Origin: Phycisphaerae bacterium
GTDB lineage: Bacteria > Planctomycetota > Phycisphaerae > SM23-33
Assembly (NCBI GenBank): GCA_016782885.1
Contig: JADHXQ010000003.1
Location: 18,316-82,315, forward strand
Reading direction: 5' to 3'
Length of the DNA: 64,000 bases
Shown: positions 2,060 to 17,286 of the stretch, piece by piece
Layout: every line of letters starts with the position of its first letter
Position numbering within the stretch: position 1 is the first letter of the stretch
The notes under the pieces: generated by a model
What the model was told of the DNA's origin: nothing
Seen by the model: only the letters and a program-made list of their open reading frames with translations
The model's database searches: none
Translations under genes and position numbers: made by a program

Positions 2060-3129
2060 TTTCTGCTCCCGGTCTTTGCTGAGGATTCGCCCGCACTATT
2101 GTCATCGAGCGTCGGTATCTTGCCCTTGGGCGGGGCTTTTCTGCTGAGGCGTCGGGCCGGCTGGAGATAGCGGACACCCGAATTGGGGTTATCTTCGTCG
2201 TATGCGAAGGCTTCGCGATTCTCGATAAAACGCTTTACGACGTCGACCGGGATGGCGAAGTTCAAACCACCGAGGTGGATATACCCCATCGAAGTTACGC
2301 CGATTATCTCGCCCTTCAGGTTGAAAAGCGGTCCGCCGGAGTTGCCCGGGTTGATGTCAGCGGTGGTCTGGATATAAAGCTGCCCCTGGAAATTGCGGTT
2401 CCTGGTCGAGACTATTCCCTGGCTGACCGTACGCGTCAGGCCCATCGGATTACCTATGGCGAAAACCTGGCGCCCGACCGTAACTTCCTTGATATTACCG
2501 AGGTAGGCGTATGCGAACGGTTTGTCGGCTTTTTCGATTTTCAGGAGCGCCAGATCCGCAAACGGATTGAGCGCGATAATCTTGACCTTCTTGTAGTGCT
2601 CCTGCCCGAATCCGCGATCGCCCCGCCGGAAAACCGTGATCTTGATGCGTGTCTCTCCGGCTATCACGTGATAGTTCGTGATCAGGTATCCGTCGGGGCT
2701 GATCAGGAAGCCCGACCCCTGCCCGCCGGGCGAGTTGACCATCACGACCGCCTGTCCGAAAGCTTTTGCCTTGGCCTCGATCGTACCGCCCTTGAGGTCC
2801 GCGGTGCGATATATCCGGCCTTTGACCGCGACCTCTCTGGCCGGACGCGTGTCCGCCCCGCCGGACGGTTGACTCGCCGCGACGCCCTTCAGTATCTGCG
2901 CGACATCGGACCGCCTGAGGCGAACGACCTCCGCCCCGAGATCGACAACCACCATTCGGGCGTCGGACTTGAGTACGCGGCCCTTGATCTCGGCGCCCCC
3001 TTTGAGGATGACACGGTCGGAGGCAAACGCCGCGCCGCACAGGAAAACCACGCCCAGACACGCCGGAAGCAGCCCCATACACACCACTGCCCCGCGACGC
3101 GTCGAATCGAAACAACCCCTTGTTATCAT
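2056..3129 (-). CDS. trypsin-like (S1 family, HtrA/DegP-like catalytic domain) serine protease
   Basis: His (ITNYHVI), Asp (DLALLKI) and Ser (GNSGGPLFN) catalytic-triad motifs appear in the canonical order. N-terminal signal/TM segment. No obvious PDZ domain. Confidence 0.8.
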   Translation of the reverse strand: MITRGCFDSTRRGAVVCMGLLPACLGVVFLCGAAFASDRVILKGGAEIKGRVLKSDARMVVVDLGAEVVRLRRSDVAQILKGVAASQPSGGADTRPAREVAVKGRIYRTADLKGGTIEAKAKAFGQAVVMVNSPGGQGSGFLISPDGYLITNYHVIAGETRIKITVFRRGDRGFGQEHYKKVKIIALNPFADLALLKIEKADKPFAYAYLGNIKEVTVGRQVFAIGNPMGLTRTVSQGIVSTRNRNFQGQLYIQTTADINPGNSGGPLFNLKGEIIGVTSMGYIHLGGLNFAIPVDVVKRFIENREAFAYDEDNPNSGVRYLQPARRLSRKAPPKGKIPTLDDNSAGESSAKTGSRK

Positions 3130-3280
3130 TTCCGACTCCCTTCGCTGGCGTCACATAGCACGTTAGTTTCGCTTCATCGCCTCGGTATCTTCCGGCCTCG
3201 ATCGGCTACATCGTAAGTGTTTGCAATTTATCGCACAAGTGCTTACCTTGATGGAGAATTCCAACCGACAGGAAGCAAAC

Positions 3281-5746
3281 ATGAATCAAGGCAAGAGATA
3301 TTCGATTTTCGCGGTATTGGCAGTTGCGGTGTCACTGGTTTGTTTGTCCGTCTCGCCGTCTTCAACCGCACCGGGGGCAGTCGAAACCAAGCGGTCGGCG
3401 ACGACCGGAAAATCGAGTAATCTCGACCAGTACTACGGTTTTGGTCCGATGGAGATACTCAAGCTCGAGTGGAGCCTGGGCGCCCCCCGGATAACCGACA
3501 TCAATCACGACGGGCTCAACGATATCATCGTGGTCAACAACACCAAGGCCCGCATCGAACTGCTGCTGCAGAAGAAGGGTTTCGACCCGGACGCCAAAGT
3601 GACAGTTGAGGTTCGCAACGACGACGTTAACGATGTTTTCGGCAGGGAGCGCAGGTGGCGGTTCCATCGCGCATCGTATGATCTGGACGTCAGCGCTTCG
3701 GCGGTGGTTGTTGCGGATTTGAATGGCGACGGCAGGGACGACCTGGCCTACAACACGAAGGAAGCACTCTACGTAACGCTCCAGAAAGCCCCGGGCAAAT
3801 CCTCGCCCCCCACGAAAAAACGCCTGAACAAGCCCGCCGCCAGGCCCGGCGAGCCAACGGGCCAAACGCCTGGCGAACCGCAATGGTTGACCGCCAGGCG
3901 CATTTCCATCAGCGGCGGTCTCCATATGCCCCACGCGCTGGCCGGCGGAGACCTCAACGGTGACAAGCGAACAGACCTGGCGTTGCTCGGCGGGAACGGA
4001 ACGTTTGTGCTCCTGCAGTCAGGCGACGGGACAATGGGCCAACCGCGGAAACTCTACTCGTCCAGCGAACGGGCGCGCAAGCTCATGATCGGCGACATTA
4101 ACAACGACGGGCTTGACGACATGGTGGTCCTGACGACTGAAAGCGCCTTTCCCCTGCGAGTTCGGTTCCAGACGCACGATGGTAAGCTCGGTCCGGAAGT
4201 CCGCCTGGCAATGAAGGCGCCGGTCGCCATGGAACTGGTGAAACTGGGCAAGCGGACCTGTCTTGCCACAATCTCCGCCCACAGCGGTCGCGTGCAGATT
4301 TGGGCGTTGGGTCAACATAAGGGGAAAGAAGCCTACCCCGTATTCACCTATCCCCTGCCCTCCGCTGAGTCGGCCGACAAGCGCGACATTGTAACCGCCG
4401 ATGTCGATGGCGACTCACTGAGCGACGTGATTGTCTCCGATCCGTCGGCGGCCGAATTCCTGCTGTATCGAGCGTCGAAAAAAACATCGCTGACCCCGGT
4501 GAAGCGATTTCCCGGTCTGACGGACATGCAGAAGCTTTGCTCCGGTGATATCGACGGTCTCGGTAAGGATTCGATAGTCTCCCTGAGCATCAAGGAGAAA
4601 CTCGTCGCCATAACGCGTTTCGAGTCCGGACGCCTGACGTTTCCCAAGTCCATCTCCGTAAAGGACGAACCGGTCGCAATCGATCTGGCCGACATCGACG
4701 GTGATTCAAAACTCGATTTGCTCTACATTGCCCGCGACAAGAAGGCCGACAAGTTCGTTCTCCGCACGGTCATGAGCGTCGGACGAAAAGACGCCAAACC
4801 CGGAAACCAGGTCGAGCTTTCCCAAGTCGCCGACCGCCCTCTGGACCTCCGCGCCGCGGACATCGACAATGACGGACAATGCGACGCGATTATCATAAAG
4901 TCGTACGGACCGCTGCTGCTGGTGCGCCAGGCGAAGGCGGGAAAGTTCGAGGAGATCGCCAAAGGCGATATTCACTCCGGACTGGTCAACAACGTGCTGG
5001 CCAATTCGATGTCGTTCGGCCCGCTCGGTCCCAAAGGCGCCACCGCCCTGCTGCTGGCACGAAAGAAATTCGCCAGATCCCTCATCTTCGCCTCCAAAGG
5101 CGGATGGCAGGTTGTCGATCAGTACCAGGCGGTCAATCAGCAGAGCAATGTCGTTGCGGCTGCGGCGTGCCGCATGCCCGGAAAAAAAGACATGACCATC
5201 GTGACCTACGACGCCGCACGCGAGCGGCTGGGCATACTCGCACGCAAAGGCGACGGTACATATCGCACCGACAAGGAACTGGAAATCGGGTCCGTAAACG
5301 TCCGCAAGATACTGGCGGGCAATTTCGGAGGCCCCTCGCCCCTGAGCCTGCTGGTCTGCGGGGCTCACAAGCTCATTCGCATACCACTGACCGGTCAGAC
5401 ACACCAGTTGTCGAAGATCGCTTCGTTTGAACCGGATATCAAGTCCGGACGGTATGGCGCGCTGACCGCGGGCGATGTCAATTCCGACAACCGACCCGAC
5501 ATCGTTCTCTGCGAACGGAGAACCCAACACGTGGAAATCCTCACATTCAATCCCCAAGCCAGGCTCGTGGCGGCCACAAAGTTCAAAGTCTTCGAACAGG
5601 CCCAGGCGCCGCGGCGCAACAAGTGGAACAACGAGGAATCCGGCGGTGAACCGAAAACCGCCGTCGTCGGCGACGTGACCGGTGACGGTAAGAACGACCT
5701 GATCCTCCTGGTCCACGACCGCCTCATAATCTATCCTCAGGACTGA
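3281..5746 (+). CDS. FG-GAP/VCBS repeat beta-propeller protein, secreted
   Basis: At least nine Ca-binding-like repeats of the form D-x-(N/D)-x-D-G-x-x-D (DINHDGLNDIIV, DLNGDGRDDLA, DINNDGLDDMVV, DVDGDSLSDVIV, DIDGDSKLDLLY, DIDNDGQCDAII, DVNSDNRPDIVL, DVTGDGKNDLIL). The start is placed at the ATG at 3281, which precedes a signal peptide and has an AGGAAG ribosome-binding site 6 nt upstream. The ORF track begins 60 nt earlier. Confidence 0.75.
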   Translation: MNQGKRYSIFAVLAVAVSLVCLSVSPSSTAPGAVETKRSATTGKSSNLDQYYGFGPMEILKLEWSLGAPRITDINHDGLNDIIVVNNTKARIELLLQKKGFDPDAKVTVEVRNDDVNDVFGRERRWRFHRASYDLDVSASAVVVADLNGDGRDDLAYNTKEALYVTLQKAPGKSSPPTKKRLNKPAARPGEPTGQTPGEPQWLTARRISISGGLHMPHALAGGDLNGDKRTDLALLGGNGTFVLLQSGDGTMGQPRKLYSSSERARKLMIGDINNDGLDDMVVLTTESAFPLRVRFQTHDGKLGPEVRLAMKAPVAMELVKLGKRTCLATISAHSGRVQIWALGQHKGKEAYPVFTYPLPSAESADKRDIVTADVDGDSLSDVIVSDPSAAEFLLYRASKKTSLTPVKRFPGLTDMQKLCSGDIDGLGKDSIVSLSIKEKLVAITRFESGRLTFPKSISVKDEPVAIDLADIDGDSKLDLLYIARDKKADKFVLRTVMSVGRKDAKPGNQVELSQVADRPLDLRAADIDNDGQCDAIIIKSYGPLLLVRQAKAGKFEEIAKGDIHSGLVNNVLANSMSFGPLGPKGATALLLARKKFARSLIFASKGGWQVVDQYQAVNQQSNVVAAAACRMPGKKDMTIVTYDAARERLGILARKGDGTYRTDKELEIGSVNVRKILAGNFGGPSPLSLLVCGAHKLIRIPLTGQTHQLSKIASFEPDIKSGRYGALTAGDVNSDNRPDIVLCERRTQHVEILTFNPQARLVAATKFKVFEQAQAPRRNKWNNEESGGEPKTAVVGDVTGDGKNDLILLVHDRLIIYPQD

Positions 5747-5846
5747 TCGCCGGTCTCGCCCCGGAAAAAATCCCTTTATTTGCGGGCCGGGGTTATGCAT
5801 CATCTCCTAAACTGAAGTGAAGTAACTTCCAAATTGGAGATATCAG

Positions 5847-7424
5847 ATGAAAACTATCGGTATGGCCGCCCTCGTTATCGCCGGTCTGCTCAGTAGTGTC
5901 GCATTGGCCGGAGACTGGCCCGATTGGGGTGGCGGACCGAATCGGAACATGGCCTCGGAGGAAAAGAACATCCCCATGTCGTTCGGGCCGGGCAAACCCA
6001 AAGGCGACAGCCGCCAGATCGACATGTCCACAACTCACAACGTCAAATGGACACTCGTACTCGGCAGCCAGACGTATGGTAACCCGGTGATCTCGGGCGG
6101 AAAAATCATCGTGGGCACAAATGACGGAATGCTCAAGGACGACCGCTTCAAGCGGACCAGGGGCGGGCTGGTGATCTGCTGCGACGCCGAAACGGGCAAG
6201 ATTCTCTGGCAGCTTGTCGTTCCGCGATTCAGAACCAACGACAGAAAGTTCAACTACGACGACCTGAATCTCGGCATCTGCAACTCCGCGGCGATCGAAG
6301 GCGACAGGGCGTATATGGTGTCAAACCGCGGCGACGTGCTCTGCCTGGACATGAACGGACAGGCCGACGGAAACGACGGGGCGTTCAAGGACGAAGGGAA
6401 GTACATGGTCGACGTGGGCAAGAAGCCCGCAAAGATAAACAAGTTCGACGCCGACATCATCTGGCGGTATAACATGATAACCGAACTGCCCATGAACCCG
6501 CAGGACGCTTCGAGCTGCGCGGTGCTCGTGGATGGGGATTTTGTCTACGCGGGCACTTCAAACGGCGTCGACCGCGGACACGTCAAATGCAAATACCCCG
6601 ACGCGCCGAGCGTGATCGTACTGGACAAGAAGACCGGAAGGCTGTTGGCTAAAGACGATGAGAAGACCAGCAGGAACATACTGCACGGACAGTGGTCGTC
6701 ACCGTCGATGGTTACCGTTGGCGGAAAGAAACTGCTCCTCTACGGCTGCGGCGACGGCGTGCTCCATGCGTTCGAGGCCCTGACCAAAACGCCACAGGAC
6801 GGAAAGGTACTCACGCTCAAGGTCGCGTGGAAATACGACTGCAGCCCCAAGGAATACCGGTTCGACACCAAGGGCAAGAAGCGCAAATACGAAAAGAGAC
6901 ACGCCAGCTACAAGAGCGGAAAACGCGGTGGAGGACCATCCGAAATCATCGCCACGCCCAATGTCTATAAGGGGCGAATCTACGTGGCCATCGGGCAGGA
7001 CTCACGCCATGGAATGGGCGACGGGGCGCTGTCGTGCGTCGATGCGGCCACCGGAAAAAGAGTCTGGATATCGAAACTGGTCGACCGGACAATGTCGACC
7101 TGTTCGATCCTGGATTCTCTGCTCTACGTGTCCGACTACACGGGCAACCTGCACTGCTTCGATCCGGACACCGGAAAACGCCATTGGGTCCACGAGACCA
7201 AGTCGCCGCTGTGGAGTTCGACATTCGCGGTTGACGGAAAGGTCTTCCTGGGCACGGAGAACAGTGAACTGTGGGTGCTCAAGGCCGGTAAGGAAAAGAA
7301 AGTACTCAACAAGATACGCCTTCTGGAGAAGATGGCCAACACTCCGACCGTCGCAAACGGCGTGCTGTATATCGCCACGGGACGATACCTCTACGCCATA
7401 GCCTCCGACGACAGGAGCAAATAG
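5847..7424 (+). CDS. PQQ-like repeat beta-propeller protein (BamB/YncE-like), secreted; paralog A of a tandem triplication
   Basis: Signal peptide followed by a DWPxWGG motif, then repeated beta-strand/turn motifs typical of PQQ-enzyme-repeat propellers. About 75% identical to the next two genes. GGAGA ribosome-binding site upstream. Confidence 0.7.
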   Translation: MKTIGMAALVIAGLLSSVALAGDWPDWGGGPNRNMASEEKNIPMSFGPGKPKGDSRQIDMSTTHNVKWTLVLGSQTYGNPVISGGKIIVGTNDGMLKDDRFKRTRGGLVICCDAETGKILWQLVVPRFRTNDRKFNYDDLNLGICNSAAIEGDRAYMVSNRGDVLCLDMNGQADGNDGAFKDEGKYMVDVGKKPAKINKFDADIIWRYNMITELPMNPQDASSCAVLVDGDFVYAGTSNGVDRGHVKCKYPDAPSVIVLDKKTGRLLAKDDEKTSRNILHGQWSSPSMVTVGGKKLLLYGCGDGVLHAFEALTKTPQDGKVLTLKVAWKYDCSPKEYRFDTKGKKRKYEKRHASYKSGKRGGGPSEIIATPNVYKGRIYVAIGQDSRHGMGDGALSCVDAATGKRVWISKLVDRTMSTCSILDSLLYVSDYTGNLHCFDPDTGKRHWVHETKSPLWSSTFAVDGKVFLGTENSELWVLKAGKEKKVLNKIRLLEKMANTPTVANGVLYIATGRYLYAIASDDRSK

Positions 7425-7447
7425 CATCCCAAACCAGGAGAGGTCGC

Positions 7448-9058
7448 ATGCGACTCGCCGATATTCTTGTAACAGTTGCCCTCGGACTGTCGAGCAGCAT
7501 CGCCTCCGCCGAAGACTGGCCCCAGTGGGGATATGGCCCGAGTCGAAACATGGCCTCGGATGCGAGGAATCTGCCCCTTTTGTTCGGACCGGGCAGGCCC
7601 AAAGATGGCAGCCGCCAGATCGATATGTCCACAACCCGCAACGTCAAGTGGGCCCTCGTCCTGGGCAGCCAGACGTACGGTAACCCGGTAATCTCGGGCG
7701 GGAAGATCATCGTTGGCACGAACGACGCGATGCTAAAAGACAACCGTTTCAAGAGGACCCGGGGCGGGCTGGTCATCTGCTGCGACGCCGATACGGGAAA
7801 AAGGCTCTGGCAACTCGTCACACCGCGATTCGAAACAAAGGACAAGAAACTCAACCTGGACCACCTGAACCTCGGCATCTGCAACTCCGCCGCAATCGAA
7901 GGCGACAGGGCATACATCATCTCCAACCGCGGCGAAGTGCTCTGCCTCGACATGAACGGACAGGCCGACGGGAACGACGGACCGTTCCAAGACGAAGGCG
8001 AGTTCATGGTCGCCAAAGGCCGCCCGCCCGCGAAGATCAACAAGTCCGACGCCGACATCATCTGGCGATACGACACGATCACCGCCCTGCCGGTCTGGCC
8101 CCATGACGCGGTGAGCTGTGCCGTGCTGATTCACGGAGATTTCCTATATGCCGGAACTTCAAACGGGGTCGACCTGTCCCATATCAACGTGCCGTATCCC
8201 GATGCGCCAAGCCTGATAGTACTGAACAAGAAAACCGGCAGGCTGCTGGCCAAAGACGACGCGAGAATCGGCAGGCGGATGCTGCACGGGCAGTGGTCAT
8301 CACCGTCCATGGGCCGCGTAAACGGCAAGACACTTATCTTCTACGGCGGAGGCGACGGGCTGCTCTATGCCTTCGAGGCGTTGAGCGAGGCGCCCGGCGG
8401 CGAAAAACCCGCCACGCTCAAGGAAGTATGGCGATACGACTGCAATCCACGCGACTACCGCTTCCGACCGAACGGCGAAAAAATCCTCTACCAGAGACTC
8501 TTCGGACCGGCGAGGAACAATACACGCGGCGAGGGGCCCGGCGAGATCATCGCGACACCTGTGTTCCACAAGGGGCGCCTCTACGTAGCCATCGGCCACG
8601 ACCCGCGCCACGGAACCGGGAAAGGGTGCCTCTCGTGCGTGGACGCCGCCACCGGAAAGAAAATATGGGAATCGCGCGACGTCGAGCGATCGCTGTCGAC
8701 CTGTTCGATCTACAACGGACTACTCTACATCGCCGACTATACGGGCAACGTGCATTGCTTCGATCCGGACACCGGCAAGCGCCACTGGGTCCACCACACC
8801 GACGGGGAATATGGAAAGTGGATCCTCAAGACCAACTCGCCCCTGTGGAGTTCGACGTTCGCGGCCGACGGGAAAGTCTATCTCGGCACGGAAAAGAAAG
8901 AACTGTGGGTCTTCCAGGCCGGAAGAAAAAAGAAGGTCCTCAACAAGATCCGCCTCCTGGAAAAGATGTCCAACACCCCGATCGCGGCAAATGGTATATT
9001 GTATGTCGCCACCGGACGATACCTCTACGCCGTAACCGATGACGCCAAGAGCAGGTAG
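7448..9058 (+). CDS. PQQ-like repeat beta-propeller protein, paralog B
   Basis: Highly similar to 5847..7424 and 9082..10851. A 23-bp spacer before it carries AGGAGA. Confidence 0.7.
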   Translation: MRLADILVTVALGLSSSIASAEDWPQWGYGPSRNMASDARNLPLLFGPGRPKDGSRQIDMSTTRNVKWALVLGSQTYGNPVISGGKIIVGTNDAMLKDNRFKRTRGGLVICCDADTGKRLWQLVTPRFETKDKKLNLDHLNLGICNSAAIEGDRAYIISNRGEVLCLDMNGQADGNDGPFQDEGEFMVAKGRPPAKINKSDADIIWRYDTITALPVWPHDAVSCAVLIHGDFLYAGTSNGVDLSHINVPYPDAPSLIVLNKKTGRLLAKDDARIGRRMLHGQWSSPSMGRVNGKTLIFYGGGDGLLYAFEALSEAPGGEKPATLKEVWRYDCNPRDYRFRPNGEKILYQRLFGPARNNTRGEGPGEIIATPVFHKGRLYVAIGHDPRHGTGKGCLSCVDAATGKKIWESRDVERSLSTCSIYNGLLYIADYTGNVHCFDPDTGKRHWVHHTDGEYGKWILKTNSPLWSSTFAADGKVYLGTEKKELWVFQAGRKKKVLNKIRLLEKMSNTPIAANGILYVATGRYLYAVTDDAKSR

Positions 9059-9081
9059 CGCCCAAAGCCAGGAAAGATTGC

Positions 9082-10851
9082 ATGAGACTCACCTGTGTCC
9101 TCATAACAGTTGCCCTCGCCCTGTCGGGCGATGTCGCTTCGGCGGAAGACTGGCCCCAGTGGGGAGGCCGGCCGGATCGGAACATGGCCTCGGATGCGAG
9201 GAATCTGCCCCTTTTGTTCGGACCGGGCAGGCCCAAAGATGGCAGCCGCCAGATCGATATGTCCACAACCCGCAACGTCAAGTGGGCGATCGTCCTGGGC
9301 AGCCAGACGTACGGTAACCCGGTAGTTTCAGGCGGGAAGCTCATTGTCGGCACGAACGACGCCATGCTCGACGACAGGCGATTCAAGCGGACCCGGGGCG
9401 GAATAGTTATCTGCTGCGACGCCGAAACGGGCAAAACTCTCTGGACGCTCGTCGTACCGCGACACGAAAACAGGGAGGAGGGTTTCTACATGGACCAGAT
9501 GAACCTGGGCATCTGCAACTCGGCTACCATCGAAGGCGACAGGGCGTACGTTGTAACCGGGCGCGGCGAAGTGCTCTGCCTCGACATGAACGGACAGGCC
9601 GACGGAAACGACGGGGCCTTTCAGGACGAAGGTAAGTTCATGGTCCCCAAACGCCACCCGCCCGCGAAACTCAACAAGTCGGACGCTGACATCATCTGGC
9701 GATACGACATGGTCACCGAGTTGCCCGTTCGCCCGCACGACGCGGTAAGCTGCGCCGCGCTGATACACGGCGACTTCATCTACGCCGGCACGTCAAACGG
9801 TCCGGACCTGTCCCACATCAACCTGCCGTATCCCGATGCGGCGAGCCTGATCGTGCTGAACAAGAAAACCGGCAAGCTCGTCGCAAAAGACGAAGAGAAA
9901 ATAGGCAGGCGGATGTTTCACGGGCAGTGGTCCTCCCCGTCCATGGCTCGCGCAGGCGGCAAGATGCTGGTGTTCTACGGCGCCGGCGACGGGCTGATCT
10001 ACGCGTTCGAGGCCTTGAGCGAAGCGCCCGACGGGGACAAGGTCGCCACACTCAAGAAAGTATGGGCCTACGACTGCAACCCCCGCGACTACCGCTTCCG
10101 TCCCAGCGGTAAGAAAATCCTTTACACGCGCCTGACCGGTCCGGCCAGGAACAAGATCCGCGGCGAGGGGCCCAGCGAGATCATCGCAACGCCGGTGTTC
10201 TACAACCGGAGAGTCTATGTAGCCACCGGTCGCGACCCGCACCACGGGACGGGCCCGGGAATGCTGTCGTGCGTGGACGCCGCCACCGGAAAGAAGGTTT
10301 GGGAATCGCGCGACGTCGAGCGGTCGCTGTCGACCTGTTCGATCTACGACTCCCTGCTCTACATCGCCGACCATTCAGGCAACCTGCACTGCTTCGACGC
10401 CGATACCGGAAAGCGGCACTGGGTCCACCGCACCGATCCGGAATACGGAAAATATCCATTCCGGACCAACTCGCCGCTGTGGAGTTCGACATTCGCAGCC
10501 GACGGAAAAATCTATCTCGGCACGGAGAAGAAGGAACTGTGGGTCTTTGAAGCCTCTAAGAAAAAGAAGATACTCAACAAGATTCCCCTCCTGGAAAAGA
10601 TGTCTAACACGCCGATCACCGCAAACGGTATACTGTACGTCACCACCGGACGATACCTTTACGCCGTAACCGGCAAAGCCAAAGTGTCAGCTAACCAGCA
10701 ACCCCTGGGAGTCAATAATGAAATCATCGCTTGTCCGTATTATCGCATTCCTCGCCGTCACAGTCGCCTTCGCCTCGACCGCCCGCACCGCGGATGTCGC
10801 ACACAAGTTCCTCGGCGTGGACAACAAAGCCAACAACCTGATCTACGTTGA
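9082..10851 (+). CDS. PQQ-like repeat beta-propeller protein, paralog C. Its stop codon is lost, giving a ~55-aa C-terminal extension that overlaps the next gene.
   Basis: Paralogs A and B end at ...YAI/V..D..K/R-stop. Here the frame reads through (YAVTGKAKVSANQQ...) for a further 165 nt until 10851. Confidence 0.65.
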   Translation: MRLTCVLITVALALSGDVASAEDWPQWGGRPDRNMASDARNLPLLFGPGRPKDGSRQIDMSTTRNVKWAIVLGSQTYGNPVVSGGKLIVGTNDAMLDDRRFKRTRGGIVICCDAETGKTLWTLVVPRHENREEGFYMDQMNLGICNSATIEGDRAYVVTGRGEVLCLDMNGQADGNDGAFQDEGKFMVPKRHPPAKLNKSDADIIWRYDMVTELPVRPHDAVSCAALIHGDFIYAGTSNGPDLSHINLPYPDAASLIVLNKKTGKLVAKDEEKIGRRMFHGQWSSPSMARAGGKMLVFYGAGDGLIYAFEALSEAPDGDKVATLKKVWAYDCNPRDYRFRPSGKKILYTRLTGPARNKIRGEGPSEIIATPVFYNRRVYVATGRDPHHGTGPGMLSCVDAATGKKVWESRDVERSLSTCSIYDSLLYIADHSGNLHCFDADTGKRHWVHRTDPEYGKYPFRTNSPLWSSTFAADGKIYLGTEKKELWVFEASKKKKILNKIPLLEKMSNTPITANGILYVTTGRYLYAVTGKAKVSANQQPLGVNNEIIACPYYRIPRRHSRLRLDRPHRGCRTQVPRRGQQSQQPDLR

Positions 10852-12214
10852 CCAGACAGACACAAAGAAAAGCTGGACCGCCGCCATCCCCGGCGGGTCG
10901 CGCGATCTGCAGGTCATCGATGGCAATAAGGTCCTCGTCAGCCACGGTAACGGCGCGGGCGAATACGATCTGGCTACGGGCAAGAAGCTATGGGCGATCG
11001 ATTCGTTTACAGGCATCAACTCCGCCCGTCGCCTGGACGACGGAAACACGCTGCTCGGCGGGAGCGGGAAGGGTGGAATAACCATCTACACCGCAGACCG
11101 CACGGGCAAGACGCTCGGCGAGTTGGTCCTCAAGGGCCTGCGGGACCTTCGCCTGATGCGGCGCCTGAAGAACGGAAACATCCTGCTGACCGTCGGCGGA
11201 CCCTATCGGGTTATCGAAGTCGACACCAGGGGGAAGATCGTCTGGCAGGCTAAGATTCCGGGCAAGGGATACAAAGCCGTCCGCCTTCCGTGCGGTAATA
11301 CTTTGGTATCGACAGCCAGCGCCGCGGTGATCGTCGAACTCGACGCAGATGGCAAGATCGTATTCTCGGTGGGCGGAAAGAAGGAACATCCGAATATTCT
11401 GCTGGACTGCTTCTCCGGTTTCGACACACTGCCTAACGGTAACGTGGTCGTCGCCAACTGGCTGGGACACGGTAATATGGGCAAGGGCGGCCAGCACCTC
11501 ATCGAGTTCGATCGCAAGAACAAAGTGGTCTGGACATGGGGCGACAACAAGACAGCAAAGGTGCTCACCAACCTGCTGATCGTGGACGATGTGAAGCAAT
11601 CAACACCCGCCGCCGCCACCCCCGCCGTCGCTGGTGAATGGACCGCCCTGTTCGACGGTAAGACGCTCGAGGGCTGGACCAACCCCTACAAGTGGGGCAA
11701 GGCGTCGGTCGTCGACGGAGAAATCCACCTCACGACCACCAGGTCCAAGTTCTTCCTGACCACCGCCAAACAGTACGCCGACTTCATATTCGAAGTTGAA
11801 GTCAAGATGCCCGAAGGCAAGAGCAACTCCGGATTCATGTTCCGCTGCCACCAGCAGCCCAACAAGGTCTTCGGGTACCAGGCCGAGGTCGACCCGTCAG
11901 ACCGCAAGTGGTCCGGCGGCCTGTACGATGAGGGACGGCGCGGATGGCTTTATCCCGACAAGAAGAAGAAAGAAACGATTGGGGCCTTCCGCAAGAACGC
12001 GGGCGACAGCTTCAAACGCGACGACTGGAACAAGTACCGTATCGAATGCGTCGGTGACAGCCTGAAGATATCCGTCAACGGCGTCCAGACAACCGACTTC
12101 AAGGACTCCACCGACGCCCAGGGATATCTCGCCCTGCAGCATCACGGCGAGAGGGGCAAGATTTACCGATTCAGGAACATCCGCGTAAAGGTCCTCAAAG
12201 CCGCCAAGGAGTAG
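10718..12214 (+). CDS. secreted two-domain protein with an N-terminal beta-propeller-like domain and a C-terminal DUF1080 (3-keto-disaccharide hydrolase-like, LamG fold) domain
   Basis: Signal peptide MKSSLVRIIAFLAVTVAFA with a GGGAG ribosome-binding site 8 nt upstream. The C-terminal region (EWTALFDGKTLEGW...NSGFMFR...GYQAEVD...WNKYRIECVGDSLKISVNGVQT...GYLALQHHG...IRFRNIRVK) matches the DUF1080 signature. Confidence 0.75.
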   Translation: MKSSLVRIIAFLAVTVAFASTARTADVAHKFLGVDNKANNLIYVDQTDTKKSWTAAIPGGSRDLQVIDGNKVLVSHGNGAGEYDLATGKKLWAIDSFTGINSARRLDDGNTLLGGSGKGGITIYTADRTGKTLGELVLKGLRDLRLMRRLKNGNILLTVGGPYRVIEVDTRGKIVWQAKIPGKGYKAVRLPCGNTLVSTASAAVIVELDADGKIVFSVGGKKEHPNILLDCFSGFDTLPNGNVVVANWLGHGNMGKGGQHLIEFDRKNKVVWTWGDNKTAKVLTNLLIVDDVKQSTPAAATPAVAGEWTALFDGKTLEGWTNPYKWGKASVVDGEIHLTTTRSKFFLTTAKQYADFIFEVEVKMPEGKSNSGFMFRCHQQPNKVFGYQAEVDPSDRKWSGGLYDEGRRGWLYPDKKKKETIGAFRKNAGDSFKRDDWNKYRIECVGDSLKISVNGVQTTDFKDSTDAQGYLALQHHGERGKIYRFRNIRVKVLKAAKE

Positions 12215-12217
12215 AAA

Positions 12218-13246
12218 ATGATGAATATTCGCAAGATAGCGATCCCGTGCGTACTCGTAACGTTCGTTTGCCTGTGCGCAGGCCTCGCCGAAGACACCAC
12301 CAAGAACCCGATAGCCATCCGCGCACACAACGTAGTCGTACCGCCGGCGACCGGTCCGGTCAGCGGATTTACCGTCAAGAACCTCCTGGACGCCCCGTAC
12401 ACGGGCAAGGTCACGGTGAAACTCCCCGACGGATGGAAAGCCGACAAGACCCGGTTCGATGTCTCGCTCAAAGCGCGTGAAACGAAACACATCGCATTCG
12501 CGATCGAGAAAGCAGTAGACAGCAAGGTCAATGCGTACCCGTACAAGATCACAGCCGTCGGCAGCGGCAAGACCGTCACGGTCGACCAGAAGGTGATCTG
12601 CGCTACCACGCCATACGTCAAACCGAAGATCGACGGCGATATCTCCGAGTGGTTAAACGATGCAGTCCCCGTAACGTTCATTTGCAAGGACAAGAAGACC
12701 GTTGTCCGGACGTTTTGGAACAAGCGAAACTTCTGCCTCTGCGTCGAAGTGCAGGAGGACAAGTTCATCGCGGACGCAGACGCGATCCAGTTCGCCCTGG
12801 CCTCGGGCAAGGCGTCGACGGGCGATTCCCCAGACGACAAGACCGCCCGGTACGAATTTCTGATCGTCGGCGGGAGGTGCTACCAGTTAGTCAAGCCGGG
12901 AACCCCGCTGGGCGACACCCAAAAAGCTAATCCCCTGCCCGCGGAGACCGTCGCAAAATCCGTGGTGGCCGTCAAGCGGGAAAAAGACATCACGCGATAT
13001 GAAATATCCGTACCGATGCGCCCCATGCAGGAACTCCGGGCCACTACCGGACGCGAGTACCGCTTCTCCGTGCTGGTCCACGACCCCGACTCTACGGGTA
13101 TTCGGGATCTCGCCGAAGCGGCCAGCCCGCTGCCCGGAAGCCGCAACAAGTATGCCTGGTGCAAATGGCCCGGCGCAAAGTGGCCCAGTGAAAAGCCCCT
13201 GCTCGACAGCAAAGTCGAATGGGGCTTCTGTACATCGATACACTGA
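12218..13246 (+). CDS. secreted hypothetical protein, possibly with a CBM9/DOMON-like carbohydrate-binding domain
   Basis: Signal peptide. The KPKIDGDISEWLNDAVPVTF segment resembles the start of CBM9-like domains. It begins 3 nt after the stop of the upstream gene. Confidence 0.5.
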   Translation: MMNIRKIAIPCVLVTFVCLCAGLAEDTTKNPIAIRAHNVVVPPATGPVSGFTVKNLLDAPYTGKVTVKLPDGWKADKTRFDVSLKARETKHIAFAIEKAVDSKVNAYPYKITAVGSGKTVTVDQKVICATTPYVKPKIDGDISEWLNDAVPVTFICKDKKTVVRTFWNKRNFCLCVEVQEDKFIADADAIQFALASGKASTGDSPDDKTARYEFLIVGGRCYQLVKPGTPLGDTQKANPLPAETVAKSVVAVKREKDITRYEISVPMRPMQELRATTGREYRFSVLVHDPDSTGIRDLAEAASPLPGSRNKYAWCKWPGAKWPSEKPLLDSKVEWGFCTSIH

Positions 13247-13324
13247 TCGACTACAGTACTTTTTACAGGCGTTGTTTAGATCGTCCCCCCAGGGCACGTT
13301 AACTTTTTCAGACAGGAGAATGCA

Positions 13325-14374
13325 ATGAATCGTGAAATGAAAGTTCCAGCCAGGTTGGTTTTCGCATTGGTGTTCGCAGCCGTTCTTGTCTCGGGCTGCG
13401 CCGAGCCCTTGAAGTCAGGTCGCGCGGCGAAAAAAGGCGCCATCGTGATTCAGTCGGCGTTGGCGGAGAATGAAGACGCCCTGAAGGCGGGCAAGATCGC
13501 GGCAGAATCGCTCAAGAAGGCCTTGGGCAGCACCGCTCCCAAGGTCGTCCTCGTCACCGACTGTTTCGATGACAAAGCCCTCAAGACCAGCGCCCTCAAG
13601 GGTGTGACCTCCGTATTCTCCAAGGACATTGTCGTGGGTTTCGCCGGGTATGGTTCGTTTACCCAGGGCGGGGCACAGGACACCGATACGGTCGGCGTGC
13701 TGGGAATCGGCGGCGACGGGATCGACGTCCAGATAGCGTTCCAGAAGAACATGGGCGCCAAGGGCCTGTCGTTCGATACCGACAAGGCCAAACTCACCAA
13801 GGTACTGGGAGATGCCGGGCGGACCCTGGCGAAGAAACTGACCCAAAAGGCCGATTCACGCCTGCTGATCGCCATTCCCGACGCCCACTCGCCCAAGAAC
13901 CAGTTGTTCATGGACGGGCTGCAGGAAGTGGTCGGCAAGGACTTCCCGATAACCGGCGGTTCGATCTCCAAGAACGACGGCGAAACGTTCCTCTCCTACC
14001 AGGGCCAGCTCCACAGTGACAGCGCTATCGCGATAATGCTCTCGGGCGATTTCAAGGTCGCGATGGCGGGCAGGCAGGCGAAAACCAACGACGCCGTAAT
14101 CGCCACAGCCAAGGATGGAGCGGCAGAGGCCCTCAAGAACCTCGGCGCCAAGCCGATCGCCATGATCGCCTTCGACTGCGCAGGACGAAAGGGCAAGCTC
14201 GACAACCTCGGAGACGAACTCAAAGCGTTCCAGGGAGTCACGGGCAAGGATATCACGGTGTTCGGAGCCTACTGCGCCGGCGAGTTCGGACCGGCCGATG
14301 TTAAAGAGAAGAAACCCGGCGTCGTATCCAGCGGGATGGGCTGGCACGCCATGATCACGTTCATCGGGCGCTGA
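13325..14374 (+). CDS. lipoprotein, possibly with FIST-like N and C sensory domains
   Basis: Signal peptide ending in the lipobox L-V-S-G-C. Internal segments (VVLVTDCFDD..., GAYCAGEFGP) loosely resemble FIST_N/FIST_C. Confidence 0.45.
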   Translation: MNREMKVPARLVFALVFAAVLVSGCAEPLKSGRAAKKGAIVIQSALAENEDALKAGKIAAESLKKALGSTAPKVVLVTDCFDDKALKTSALKGVTSVFSKDIVVGFAGYGSFTQGGAQDTDTVGVLGIGGDGIDVQIAFQKNMGAKGLSFDTDKAKLTKVLGDAGRTLAKKLTQKADSRLLIAIPDAHSPKNQLFMDGLQEVVGKDFPITGGSISKNDGETFLSYQGQLHSDSAIAIMLSGDFKVAMAGRQAKTNDAVIATAKDGAAEALKNLGAKPIAMIAFDCAGRKGKLDNLGDELKAFQGVTGKDITVFGAYCAGEFGPADVKEKKPGVVSSGMGWHAMITFIGR

Positions 14375-14376
14375 GG

Positions 14377-15387
14377 ATGAACCTGCAATCGCGACGTGAT
14401 TTTCTCAGGACCGTCTCGCTGGCGGGCGCAGTTGTCCTGACCGATTCGGCTTCGGTCAAGGCGGCGCCCCCCGCCGGCGAAACGGTTCGTGCAATCCGCT
14501 ATCGCAGCGCCGCCGATTCGACGGAGCAGGCGGCGATATTCTACGCGCCGGAATCAAAATCCAAAACGCCTGTCCCACTGCTGGTCGGTCTGCACACATG
14601 GAGCGCTAACTACAGGCAGGTCGGCGGGCGATGCCCGTATGGACCATGGTGCATCAAGAACAAGTGGGCGTTTATCGGACCGGACTTCCGCGGATCGAAC
14701 AAGCGCCCGCAGGCCTGCGGGTCGCAACTGGCGGTAGACGACATAATCAGCGCGGTAAAGTACGCCCAAAAAGTCGCCAACATCGATGCTAATCGCATCT
14801 ATCTCATCGGCGCTTCGGGCGGAGGGCATATGGCGATGCTGATGGCCGGGCGGGCTCCGGAAATATGGGCCGGCGTCTCGGCGTGGGCGGGAATATCGGA
14901 CCTCAAGGCATGGCACGCCGAGTGCAAAAAGTCCAAACGCAGATACGCCGGGGAAATCGAGAAATCCTGCGGCGGACCGCCCGGGAAGAGCGACGCGGTG
15001 GACCTCGAATACAAAAACCGCTCACCGCTCACCTGGCTGCATCGGGCAAGAAAGACGGGCGTCCGCCTGGACATCAACGCGGGAATAAACGACGGGCACA
15101 GCGGCTCGGTGCCGATCAGCCATTCCCTGCGAGCGTTCAACGCGGTGGCCGATCCCGCCGACCGCATCTCCGACGCCGATATCGTCCACATGGTCGAAAA
15201 GGCCGAAGTCCCCACGCATCTGCGGAAGAAACTTTCCGATCGAACCTACGGGCCAAAGATACCATTGCTGCGAAAGATATCCGGCCCGGCGCGCATTACG
15301 ATATTCCAGGGCGGACACGAGATCGTACCGACCGCCGCACTGACCTGGTTGTCCCTGCAGAAAAAGTCTGCCCCGAAGCCGAAGTAG
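14377..15387 (+). CDS. Tat-secreted alpha/beta-hydrolase (esterase/peptidase S9-like)
   Basis: Twin-arginine motif SRRDFLR. GxSxG nucleophile elbow LIGASGGGH. It starts 2 nt after the stop of the upstream gene. Confidence 0.65.
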   Translation: MNLQSRRDFLRTVSLAGAVVLTDSASVKAAPPAGETVRAIRYRSAADSTEQAAIFYAPESKSKTPVPLLVGLHTWSANYRQVGGRCPYGPWCIKNKWAFIGPDFRGSNKRPQACGSQLAVDDIISAVKYAQKVANIDANRIYLIGASGGGHMAMLMAGRAPEIWAGVSAWAGISDLKAWHAECKKSKRRYAGEIEKSCGGPPGKSDAVDLEYKNRSPLTWLHRARKTGVRLDINAGINDGHSGSVPISHSLRAFNAVADPADRISDADIVHMVEKAEVPTHLRKKLSDRTYGPKIPLLRKISGPARITIFQGGHEIVPTAALTWLSLQKKSAPKPK

Positions 15388-15393
15388 CTACTG

Positions 15394-17286
15394 TCATTTC
15401 TTTACGGGCGTGATCTTCAGCGTGACCGTCGCTTCGGTCACTGGGGCTTTTAGTGCAATGCCTATTCGCGTCGGGAGCGTCTTGGTCCTGACGTCTTCCT
15501 TGATTTGTTCGGACTTAATATCAAACGCGACGCCGCCGGTGTCGATCTCGACGCGGAGGCTCTGCCCGCCATCGCTGACGATTATCGCGTTACGACCGCT
15601 GCGTTCCCACTTGCCCAGCGTAATCATGGCCGTTTCGAAGGACGTTGGCTTGCTGAAGGCGGCATCATCGCGAACCGTCAGCGACCCCGCGGCCGCACGG
15701 GAATAGACAAACGTCCTGTTTAGTTTGGTTAGCTGCGGTACTCTCTTGGCGTATGCCGAACGGATGTCCAGAACCAGCGTGTCGGCGTCGTCGGTGAATT
15801 TCGTTTTGACGACAACTCCTTTGGCGCCCGACCCGCTCTGCTGGAGCTTACCGGCGATGCGGGGCACGGGATGGCCCAGCGAATTCAGCACGCCGCTGAC
15901 ATAGCGTTTGGAACTGAACGTCCGCGCGGTATACACCTCGGCACCGGGGTCGACGAGTACCGGCGTCTTGCCGGCGACTACCACGTACGATCCGACATCG
16001 TTGTGATTGTGATGCTCGCCATTGTGCCCGCCCTTGAGCGCGACGCCTACGACGCATTTCGACTTGGGCGTCGGGCGACAGATGAGCACGCCGGCCTTGT
16101 CGAACCACGTTCGCACGCCCGGACCGGCGGCGGCATGGCCTCTATGGATGGCGCTGATCGAACTGGGGAATGAGAATATCATCGATATGGGCAATCGCCC
16201 TTTGAAGCTTATCAGCATCTTATCGCCGTCCGGGTCAGCGCCGAGCGAGTATCGGCGCGACAGAAAATGCACCATATCCAACGACGCCCGGGCGCTAACC
16301 GAGCAGTCGGCAAACGCGGGCGACACGCCGTTGATGATTTCGATACGCCGGGGGAACATCGCCGGGGTCCGGACGTTCTGTGCCTCCATCATGTCTATCC
16401 GCCCGCCGGTGGCCTGCCAGATCGTTTCAGCCAACTGCACGTAATTCCCAAACCCGTACGACCAGTAGCCCAGCCCCTCGCTGCAGTATCCGTCGGACGT
16501 GAAACCGGCCAGGAAGCTCTTGGAGTATTTCATCGCCGCCGCCACGTATTTTGCCCGCTCCGCCCGCGATTCGATCGTCGCCAGGGCGGCGCCGGTGACG
16601 CCGGCGAGGCACACCGCGTTCCAGTTGTTCGTGGTCGACATCCACCAGTTCGCCCGCCGTTTACCGCTGACCATCCCCATGTACGGATCGAATATCCGCT
16701 TGCGGAGGTTCTCGTCGATCAGTTTCCGCGTCCTGGCGTCGAGTTTGTCGCCTAGCAGATACCTCGCCGTCGCCAGTTCCCAACCCACATACGAAGACGC
16801 CAGGTCGATGTCGACGGTGCGTCCCTTGAAGTTCGCCAGCGACCTGTCGTGAGCGGGATAAACCCACGTCGGCTCGCTACAGATCGCGGCGATGACCTTC
16901 TGGAGATCGGTGATGAATCGCCCGTGGTTTTCGAGGCACTCAGCCACGGTCAGCAGGCCTATCCGCCCTCGCCGCCGCCCCGCTACCCTCTGCCATCTGT
17001 TCCGATTGCCCGTTCGCGAGAAGTCCAGGTACAGGTCGTCGCTCTGATCCGGCAGAGGCGCGCCGATCAGCTTGGCGGCTGTATCGACGATATCGCGATA
17101 TCCCTCGGTTTTCGCCAGAGCCTTCCAGGCCGTCCGATCGGCGGCCGGTCGCCCGAGACCGGCAGGCTTTGCCGGAAGGAACTCGGCGATGTTGGGCGCC
17201 TCAGCCGCCAACACACCAGCAGACGTAACCGCCAACACCGCCGCCATAATGCCTGTTATCCGTAAGATACGCTTGATCTTCCGCAT
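15394..17286 (-). CDS. heparinase II/III-like polysaccharide lyase family protein, secreted
   Basis: The C-terminal GGHNGEHHNHNDVGSYVV motif is typical of heparinase II/III-like domains. The start is placed at the internal ATG (17286) that precedes the signal peptide MRKIKRILRITGIMAAVLAVTSAGVLA. The ORF track extends it to 17388. Confidence 0.6.
   Translation of the reverse strand: MRKIKRILRITGIMAAVLAVTSAGVLAAEAPNIAEFLPAKPAGLGRPAADRTAWKALAKTEGYRDIVDTAAKLIGAPLPDQSDDLYLDFSRTGNRNRWQRVAGRRRGRIGLLTVAECLENHGRFITDLQKVIAAICSEPTWVYPAHDRSLANFKGRTVDIDLASSYVGWELATARYLLGDKLDARTRKLIDENLRKRIFDPYMGMVSGKRRANWWMSTTNNWNAVCLAGVTGAALATIESRAERAKYVAAAMKYSKSFLAGFTSDGYCSEGLGYWSYGFGNYVQLAETIWQATGGRIDMMEAQNVRTPAMFPRRIEIINGVSPAFADCSVSARASLDMVHFLSRRYSLGADPDGDKMLISFKGRLPISMIFSFPSSISAIHRGHAAAGPGVRTWFDKAGVLICRPTPKSKCVVGVALKGGHNGEHHNHNDVGSYVVVAGKTPVLVDPGAEVYTARTFSSKRYVSGVLNSLGHPVPRIAGKLQQSGSGAKGVVVKTKFTDDADTLVLDIRSAYAKRVPQLTKLNRTFVYSRAAAGSLTVRDDAAFSKPTSFETAMITLGKWERSGRNAIIVSDGGQSLRVEIDTGGVAFDIKSEQIKEDVRTKTLPTRIGIALKAPVTEATVTLKITPVKK

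Follow-up and report, generated by a model that had tools for sequence, protein, structure and literature searches.

In a Phycisphaerae bacterium, the third of three tandem beta-propeller genes (copy C) appears to have lost its stop codon by a point mutation, and its open reading frame now runs into the downstream gene D. We consider it likely that the array is old, that the stop of C was lost by a T>C transition at position 10696, that the tail so acquired is unselected, that D starts at the ATG at 10718, and that the change was neutral or mildly deleterious. All positions refer to the window, the whole stretch of 64,000 nt that was analyzed. The features of the gene row are the following.

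5847-7424, plus strand: copy A, PQQ_2/BamB-like beta-propeller protein with a signal peptide, 525 aa, TAG stop (ORF, Pfam)
7425-7447, plus strand: A-B spacer, 23 nt, Shine-Dalgarno-like AGGAG at 7436-7440
7448-9058, plus strand: copy B, 536 aa, TAG stop (ORF, Pfam, tree)
7547-7653, plus strand: B arm of the 107-nt identical tract, 100% identical to 9181-9287 in C
9059-9081, plus strand: B-C spacer, 23 nt, Shine-Dalgarno-like AGGAA at 9070-9074
9082-10851, plus strand: copy C, whole ORF, 589 aa
9082-10695, plus strand: ancestral coding part of C, 538 codons, the length of the ortholog in locus L054
9181-9287, plus strand: C arm of the 107-nt tract attributed to gene conversion
10696-10698, plus strand: former stop codon of C, now CAG (Gln539), mutated base 10696 (T>C; L054 alignment)
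10696-10851, plus strand: read-through extension of C, 51 codons plus TGA (10849-10851)
10699-10717, plus strand: former C-D spacer, 19 nt, now within the C ORF, with D's Shine-Dalgarno motif GGGAG at 10707-10711
10718-12214, plus strand: gene D, 498 aa, start ATG 10718 (Pfam, 9 orthologous loci)
10718-10851, plus strand: C/D overlap, 134 nt, D frame +1 relative to C

The ORF positions of A, B, C and D were exactly those given in a preliminary description of this locus, as were the overlap of 134 nt and the D start at 10718. The genes are packed on one strand in the order FG-GAP protein, A, B, C, D (propeller plus DUF1080) and E. The gaps are short, with 23, 23, 19 and 3 nt (19 nt being the ancestral C-D distance), and a Shine-Dalgarno motif precedes each of A to D. 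The two 23-nt spacers, each with its Shine-Dalgarno-like motif, are homologous as had been proposed; they are identical at 16/23 positions, about the same level as the identity of the coding DNA. Between 5600 and 13400 the terminator scan detected no plus-strand terminator-like sites and the promoter scan no promoter-like sites. The row from the FG-GAP gene to E is probably an operon. Also as described earlier, A and B end in YAIASDDRSK and YAVTDDAKSR, each directly followed by a stop, while C has no stop there and reads on.

The cause of the missing stop was seen in the closest syntenic ortholog, L054, which aligned to window positions 2158-15354 as one collinear 13.2-kb segment with 89% identity and whose genes follow the same order (Trypsin, FG-GAP, A, B, C, D, E, FIST, S9). 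In L054 the last codons of copy C are GCT AAC TAG, and a spacer of 19 nt separates them from the ATG of D; the window has GCT AAC CAG. This codon and one spacer base were the only differences at the junction, and the alignment had no indel across the surrounding 280 nt. In other relatives the same codon is TAG (L055, L032), TGA (L014) or TAA (L038), in all four followed by a spacer of 18-19 nt. Since L054 has TAG where the window has CAG, the alignment indicates that the stop of C was lost by a single TAG>CAG transition (T>C) at 10696. By this change the 538-aa ancestral C gains 51 residues and reaches 589 aa, compared to 532-542 aa in L054, L007, L022, L035, L013 and L014.

A deletion of ~97 bp between C and D was our first idea of the cause, when C and D were aligned only with L007 and L013. 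It was dropped because short-spacer relatives (L014, L038, L032) and then the syntenic L054 were found; the C-D junction of the window has the short spacer, and its stop is substituted. A frameshift at the 3' end, suggested by a TAA in the +2 frame just upstream, was rejected because the alignment to L054 has no gaps. In other relatives the C-D intergenic region has 113-126 nt, and with such a region the same stop mutation, read through hypothetically, would lengthen C by just 12-33 codons, without an overlap. The ~95-nt insert of these relatives, which is lacking in the window, occurs as one copy per locus, so a mobile or repeated nature of the insert was rejected; the long intergenic region matched no Rfam family.

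The CAG allele recurs. The exact 589-aa C protein was present in six ENA assemblies (ERZ24794654, ERZ24794656, ERZ24794666, ERZ24794671, ERZ24794676 and ERZ24794679; coverage 15-83x) that were 99.5-99.97% identical to the window and differed from one another by 1-60 SNPs outside the junction; at the junction (10600-10900) all six were identical. The same tail also occurred in a 589-aa variant, P0001 (one I>V change), and in the NCBI protein MBL7218645.1 from a metagenome-assembled genome (MAG). The allele was fixed in all sampled strains and restricted to one shallow lineage, with the stop kept in its relatives. The ENA accessions run consecutively, and a single study or environment is their probable source; therefore, they sample one population and are not independent fixations. 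The preliminary description had offered a genuine stop-loss as one reading, and this reading holds, with TAG in the closest ortholog and CAG in at least seven independent assemblies. Those assemblies carry CAG instead of the in-frame stop near 10685 that had been named as evidence against it. The ancestral stop had indeed been close to the predicted spot, but at 10696-10698, 11 nt off the guessed ~10685.

Because the stop of C has mutated to CAG, ribosomes would continue past the former spacer and into the D region. In the sequence of events proposed for the lineage of the window, the T>C transition at 10696 turned the TAG of C into CAG. Ribosomes on C would then run across the former 19-nt spacer, the Shine-Dalgarno motif and the AUG of D, read through the signal-peptide region of D out of its frame for the length of 44 codons, and end at the TGA at 10849-10851. 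D would still be made from ATG 10718, though it would have to initiate at its own Shine-Dalgarno motif and AUG while upstream ribosomes cross that site.

Gene D encodes a signal peptide and two domains, of which the N-terminal one is propeller-like and the C-terminal one is DUF1080/3-keto-disaccharide-hydrolase (PF06439, 151.6 bits). In 9 orthologous loci the start ATG, a GGAG motif and a signal-peptide N-terminus are all kept, and the length of D from ATG 10718 (498 aa) compares well with 492-498 aa in the orthologs. The earlier assignment as a DUF1080 gene with a signal peptide starting at 10718 was thus supported both by the PF06439 match and by the conservation of the start, and comparison of the orthologous sequences places the true start of D at ATG 10718. 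The public annotations differ from this start. The ENA/Prodigal record starts D at GTG 10817 (465 aa) and misses the signal peptide, while the NCBI record (MBL7218646.1) begins only at Met254 (245 aa), so that a whole domain is lost and ~625 nt stay unannotated. The C/D overlap is the cause of the truncation in both.

The tail of C is the peptide QQPLGVNNEIIACPYYRIPRRHSRLRLDRPHRGCRTQVPRRGQQSQQPDLR, with 11 Arg and a pI of 11.6. Its sequence is an off-frame reading of the signal-peptide region of D, and hypothetical read-through in relatives gives similar Arg-rich peptides. In the AlphaFold2 model of C (pLDDT 84.6) the propeller was confident up to approximately residue 533, while residues 534-589 had a pLDDT of ~30 and no predicted secondary structure. 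Past the last strand C carries 61 residues, compared to usually 3-27 among ~125 homologs. As modeled, the tail is probably disordered and hangs off the last propeller strand; it is presumably unselected.

The preliminary description had recognized A, B and C as PQQ-like beta-propeller genes, and all three exceeded the PQQ_2 gathering threshold of 27.6 bits in Pfam (76.8-78.3 bits, with 76.8 for A); the Pfam PQQ matches covered short stretches of the profile only. The model matched BamB and PQQ propellers, the top Foldseek matches being BamB (TM-score 0.73-0.81, normalized to BamB). The repeat type and the fold are common to A, B, C and the BamB/PQQ-repeat propellers (PF13360; PDB 3prw, 3q54). 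On the other hand, BamB has ~390 aa compared to 525-538 aa in A, B and C (C before its extension), at an identity of 13-15%. BamB is a lipoprotein with a lipobox, whereas by direct reading no lipobox Cys stands at the cleavage-site position in the N-termini of A, B and C (MKTIGMAALVIAGLLSSVALAGDWP, MRLADILVTVALGLSSSIASAEDWP, MRLTCVLITVALALSGDVASAEDWP). The cut-offs for BamB membership were missed (TIGR03300/NF008351, 56.7 vs 285.2 and 54.8 vs 423 bits), and the scores for PQQ-dependent dehydrogenases were likewise below cut-off (TIGR03075, 33.5 vs 480 bits; TIGR03074, 19.2 vs 833 bits). Judged by sequence, the three paralogs A, B and C encode secreted beta-propeller proteins of the PQQ_2 type that resemble BamB.

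Pairwise alignment gave amino acid identities of 69% (A-B), 65% (A-C) and 79% (B-C), and DNA identities of 75, 73 and 82.5%, respectively. The ~75-80% amino acid identity reported earlier is right for B-C only and too high for the two pairs with A. Pairwise alignment and blastn both showed the array; Tandem Repeats Finder did not return it, because the period of ~1.6 kb is above the 500-nt limit of that program. We observed that L054, L007, L022, L035 and L015 each have all three copies in place, and the bootstrap tree had an orthologous A clade (100%) and C clade (89-95%). Therefore, the array predates these lineages; by this comparison it is old and common to at least six lineages, and the triplication proposed earlier, taken as a recent event, is not borne out. 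The 107-nt tract shared by B and C carries window-specific derived bases, which are present in both copies and missing from L054, L007 and L022, where the longest identical B/C run is 29-44 nt compared to 107 nt in the window. The tract reflects lineage-specific gene conversion between B and C. The locus thus has the head-to-tail copies, the included spacer and the within-genome tract of a tandem paralog array with gene conversion.

Could the stop-loss mark the first step in the loss of C, which would be redundant beside two paralogs? Incipient pseudogenization had been suggested before, and we find it unlikely. A and B are same-family paralogs in the same gene row, copy number can drop, since one relative (L013) holds only two copies, and the basic 51-aa tail could impair folding or export. 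However, C has 538 uninterrupted codons collinear with those of L054 C, with no internal stop and no frameshift, and its dN/dS against L054 (0.19) is like that of A (0.14) and B (0.18), with 0.14 for D, although most of this divergence predates the stop-loss and the comparison has little power for the time after it. Carriers of the CAG allele differed by one synonymous SNP in C and by none in 10696-10851, which makes a selection test among them powerless. The C clade is kept in every other array-bearing lineage, the tail is attached past the last strand, at a place where the tails of homologs already vary (3-27 aa), and the CAG allele has persisted through strain diversification. Apart from the lost stop, the gene is intact and shows no measurable sign of decay.

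The overlap could also be adaptive, with read-through tuning the expression of D (its initiation site being occluded or unfolded) or giving C a useful new C-terminal tail, e.g., a basic envelope anchor. The allele has gone to fixation in all strains sampled and, from the sequence, ribosomes must cross the Shine-Dalgarno motif and AUG of D. Yet the allele occurs in one shallow lineage only and every relative keeps the stop. The tail is merely the off-frame D signal-peptide region, to which hypothetical read-through in relatives has an Arg-rich equivalent. The RNA fold around the ribosome-binding site of D was no different from that of shuffled sequences (z = 0.52) and so gave no sign of a significant structure whose unfolding could couple the genes. 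Adaptation by these routes is quite improbable, and the narrower version, an acquired role in which start-site occlusion sets the level of D or the Arg-rich tail distinguishes C from A and B, is slightly more so. If that version were true, the locus would show overprinting at an early stage within a bacterial operon, and the 134-nt overlap would be a long co-directional one that is fixed in nature and really translated.

Translational coupling, raised in the preliminary description, finds no support in the distances. Termination-reinitiation coupling needs a 4-nt or 1-nt overlap or a gap of a few nt, and when measured by Huber et al. (2023) it was almost gone at ~20 nt separation (PMC10666635). 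Their system and C/D both consist of adjacent same-strand genes in a packed operon, but the new stop of C lies 131 nt downstream of the AUG of D, on the wrong side of the start. Therefore, such coupling of C and D is unlikely; even the ancestral 19-nt gap is a distance where it is almost abolished (PMC10666635).

A sequencing or assembly artefact, with a stop at 10696-10698 in the true genome, is very improbable. The window does derive from a MAG, and most of the long co-directional overlaps recorded in databases are errors (PMC2478687). The change, however, is a base substitution and not a homopolymer indel, and the identical junction in independently assembled metagenomes with different SNPs (the six samples, besides the P0001 variant and the NCBI MAG) argues against an error. 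A C-D fusion protein, direct or via programmed frameshifting, has next to no probability: the C frame now enters D, and in L038, where the spacer has 18 nt, C and D are in frame with a single TAA between them, but in the window the frames differ (D is +1 relative to C, whose frame meets the TGA at 10849) and D retains its own signal peptide and Shine-Dalgarno motif. The fusion considered earlier is therefore set aside.

Among 715 candidate long co-directional overlaps surveyed previously, 68 (mean 121 bp) were attributed to a 3'-end frameshift or a point mutation in the stop codon, and no such case was accepted as real (PMC2478687). The C/D overlap belongs to this class, with a stop-codon point mutation as its cause and no indel, and its 134 nt are near the class mean. 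That survey had no means of separating real mutations from sequencing errors; at C/D, agreement among several independent assemblies verifies the mutation in DNA, and a syntenic ortholog supplies the ancestral codon (TAG). Of the conserved co-directional overlaps that the survey accepted as real, holD-rimI of Enterobacteria is the longest (32-56 bp; PMC2478687), and its same-strand genes likewise share coding sequence in different frames. It is conserved across genera, whereas the C/D overlap is confined to one shallow lineage with no sign of conservation. Fonseca, Harris and Posada (2013) modeled the origin of overlaps by stop-codon disruption as a genome-wide pattern, of which C/D is a single case, and argued that selection acts against very long overlaps (PMC3887535); therefore, the C/D overlap is expected to be short-lived.

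We infer that the stop-loss is effectively neutral or mildly deleterious, neutrality being assumed, and that it is no adaptation, no coupling device and no fusion. It is an ordinary event of a known class, and its biological weight is small. Its main practical effect is that gene callers are misled: users of the D records, in studies of the DUF1080 family or in secretome prediction for marine Phycisphaerae, get the wrong protein. For the evolution of overlaps, the locus offers a clean, well-dated case in which a single stop-codon transition was enough to make a long same-strand overlap out of an operon junction with a short spacer. It shows that such an allele can become fixed in a natural population, and that short-spacer junctions are those at risk of overlap by stop-loss.

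The three PQQ_2-type beta-propeller paralogs (A, B and C) and the adjacent DUF1080 gene (D) are arranged as follows.

Copy A: 5847-7424, same strand as B, C and D, ORF of 525 aa
A-B spacer: 7425-7447, 23 nt
Copy B: 7448-9058, same strand as A, C and D, ORF of 536 aa
B-C spacer: 9059-9081, 23 nt
Copy C: 9082-10851, same strand as A, B and D, ORF of 589 aa
Gene D: 10718-12214, same strand as A-C, ORF of 498 aa

The last 134 nt of C are shared with D, which lies in frame +1 relative to C. The Pfam PQQ_2 cut-off was passed by all the propeller proteins (3/3). The amino acid identity of about 75-80% given in the preliminary description held for B-C (79%); the values for A-B (69%) and A-C (65%) were lower. 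The two spacers were alike at 16 of 23 positions, and each had AGGAG or AGGAA 7 nt upstream of the ATG; therefore, the duplicated unit was a gene together with its spacer. Copies A and B end soon after the last propeller strand (YAIASDDRSK and YAVTDDAKSR, each followed by the stop), and C runs 61 residues past YLYAV.

A PDB profile search and Foldseek returned BamB, designed 'Cake' propellers, tetrathionate hydrolase and PQQ dehydrogenases, all at 12-15% identity. The NCBIfam BamB and PQQ dehydrogenase models scored the three proteins far below the cut-offs, and no lipobox was found in them. Therefore, these are PQQ_2-repeat propellers, neither BamB nor quinoproteins; 'BamB' and similar source names are domain-level labels.

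The claim that C lacks its stop codon was borne out. When the 589-aa protein was looked up by exact sequence, it turned up on six contigs, each of a different ENA assembly (SPAdes nodes, coverage 15-83x). The contigs were 99.5-99.97% identical to the window, with differing sets of 1-60 SNPs each, while positions 10600-10900 were unchanged in all six. Since the substitution recurs in independent assemblies, a sequencing artefact was rejected. The 90% cluster of C contained the window's own protein (NCBI MBL7218645.1, from a Phycisphaerae MAG) and a second 589-aa variant, P0001, with one I>V change. All six samples probably stem from a single environment and a single population, and the stop-loss is real, derived and fixed in the sampled population. 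We also observed that the SNPs distinguishing the six assemblies from the window were not evenly spread and formed dense tracts (4176-4330, 6867-7058, 11704-12091 and 16272-16381). This pattern suggests either that relatives living alongside took part in homologous recombination or that the assemblies contain mixed consensus sequence. The lineages of two relatives' loci, L007 and L013, were present in the same samples.

A 97-bp deletion was first suspected as the cause, because in L007 and L013, aligned to the window at about 88% nucleotide identity, C ends in a normal TAA that is followed by 113 nt of intergenic sequence. This was overturned by loci L014, L038 and L032, where the stop is followed by just 18-19 nt to the ATG of D, and then by L054, the closest syntenic ortholog. 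L054 matched the window in one collinear 13.2-kb segment at 89% identity, with a common gene order (trypsin-like protease, FG-GAP protein, A, B, C, D, the next gene E, FIST and S9 peptidase). Proteins P0124 and P0125 of the cluster, encoded on L054, terminate after ...AVTTKAKASAN, exactly where the window continues as ...AVTGKAKVSAN-QQPLG. The C-D junction is GCT AAC TAG CAACCCCCGGGAGTCAATA ATG in L054 versus GCT AAC CAG CAACCCTGGGAGTCAATA ATG in the window, which has one C more, i.e., CAACCCCTGGGAGTCAATA. Read from this alignment, the lesion is a single T>C transition, TAG>CAG, with the changed base at 10696. It lengthened C from an ancestral 538 residues by a further 51 (Q539-R589), up to the TGA at 10849-10851. 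In every other lineage compared, there was a stop at this codon position or upstream of the spacer; therefore, the CAG state is derived.

Three features of D were conserved in nine loci: its start at ATG 10718, the GGGAG located 6 nt before it, and an N-terminus resembling a signal peptide. The ENA/Prodigal gene calls on the six contigs start D at GTG 10817 (465 aa), and NCBI MBL7218646.1 covers residues 254-498 only (245 aa, starting from Met254 at about 11477). The signal peptide is missing from both calls, and the N-terminal domain from the NCBI call as well. Correctly annotated, D spans 10718-12214 and has 498 aa including the signal peptide.

Incipient pseudogenization of C, one of the readings offered initially, was not supported. 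No internal lesion was found in C, and its dN/dS against L054 was 0.19, compared to 0.14 for A, 0.18 for B and 0.14 for D, although these values also span the time before the stop-loss. Carriers of the CAG allele differed in C by one SNP in all, a synonymous one. AlphaFold2 (54-sequence alignment) gave a confident propeller (mean pLDDT 84.6, pTM 0.83), with residues 534-589 at pLDDT of about 30 and without secondary structure. The tail contains 11 Arg, 7 Gln and 6 Pro (pI 11.6); among about 125 homologs, the tail past the last strand mostly has 3-27 residues.

Another initial reading, translational coupling of C and D, was likewise not supported. As read from the sequence, ribosomes on C would now have to cross the Shine-Dalgarno motif and AUG of D, and translation of C would end 131 nt inside D. 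In E. coli and Haloferax, termination-reinitiation coupling is nearly gone at gaps of about 20 nt (PMC10666635). Even at the ancestral 19-nt junction, D was probably initiated mainly de novo from the Shine-Dalgarno motif preceding it, and with the arrangement that now exists, coupling of this kind cannot occur. The RNA fold around the ribosome-binding site of D was no different from that of shuffled sequence, so there is no structure that needs unfolding. The stop-loss would give C a floppy tail, and the start of D may be partly occluded.

The triplication itself is not recent. The three-copy array followed by D was also found in L054, L007, L022, L035 and L015. In a neighbor-joining tree, the A copies formed one clade and B + C another (both with 100% bootstrap), with the C copies grouped inside the latter (89-95%). 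Since the A and C clades span lineages, the triplication is older than these lineages (about 80-90% nucleotide identity). Positions 7547-7653 of B and 9181-9287 of C were 100% identical over 107 nt against a B/C background of 82%, and carried window-specific derived bases present in neither B nor C of L054, L007 and L022, which indicates recent gene conversion within the array. In L035, B and C share a different tract, of 90 nt, which lies elsewhere in the gene, close to the 3' end. These tracts point to continuing sequence exchange among the copies.

L013 (4400-7617) had two propeller copies only, A and a copy nearly equidistant from B (85.9% nt) and C (83.1% nt); B and C may have collapsed into one through unequal recombination, or the locus may show the state before the B/C duplication. 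Upstream of A, the window (about 2158-5746), L054, L035 and L015 had a trypsin-like protease and an FG-GAP/VCBS protein of 821-841 aa, while L007 and L013 had pyrimidine-synthesis genes, a PilZ-like gene and a T4-deiodinase-like gene. Therefore, a rearrangement breakpoint lies just 5' of A.

In some relatives, a conserved insert about 95 nt long lay between the C stop and the ribosome-binding site of D, in the following long C-D intergenic regions.

L007: 7621-7733
L013: 7618-7730
L035: 7888-8000
L015: 7875-8000

The insert, one copy per locus, followed the pattern CTTGCCAAACGC..CCGGCGG..TCTATAGGGGAAA..hairpin..GAGGATGAATCC; it had no Rfam match, and its consensus structure was weakly supported (4 sequences). 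Its presence was at odds with the C-gene tree, where short-spacer L014 grouped with long-spacer L015, and L054 and the window, both with the short spacer, grouped with long-spacer L007, which implies repeated deletion or recombination. The insert could serve D as a promoter of its own or as its 5' UTR. In L022 (7929-8000), the 69-nt C-D intergenic region consisted of short degenerate, stop-codon-rich repeats (TGATCGG TGATCGG TAAACAG TGATCAG TAACGG TAACGG), resembling neither the short nor the long form. In L038 (301-324), C and D were in the same frame, with an 18-nt spacer and a single TAA between them; a stop-loss there would join the two into a genuine fusion protein of about 1040 aa.

The C/D overlap fits class iii of Palleja et al. 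2008, in which a point mutation of the stop codon extends the 3' end (68 of the 715 long co-directional overlaps surveyed, with a mean of 121 bp; PMC2478687), as well as the overlap-origin model of Fonseca et al. 2013 (PMC3887535). We infer that the stop-loss is neutral to mildly deleterious and not an adaptation. It came about through the change of one base in an ancient array of three paralogous genes and is an event of a type already known, of low biological interest and modest value for annotation.
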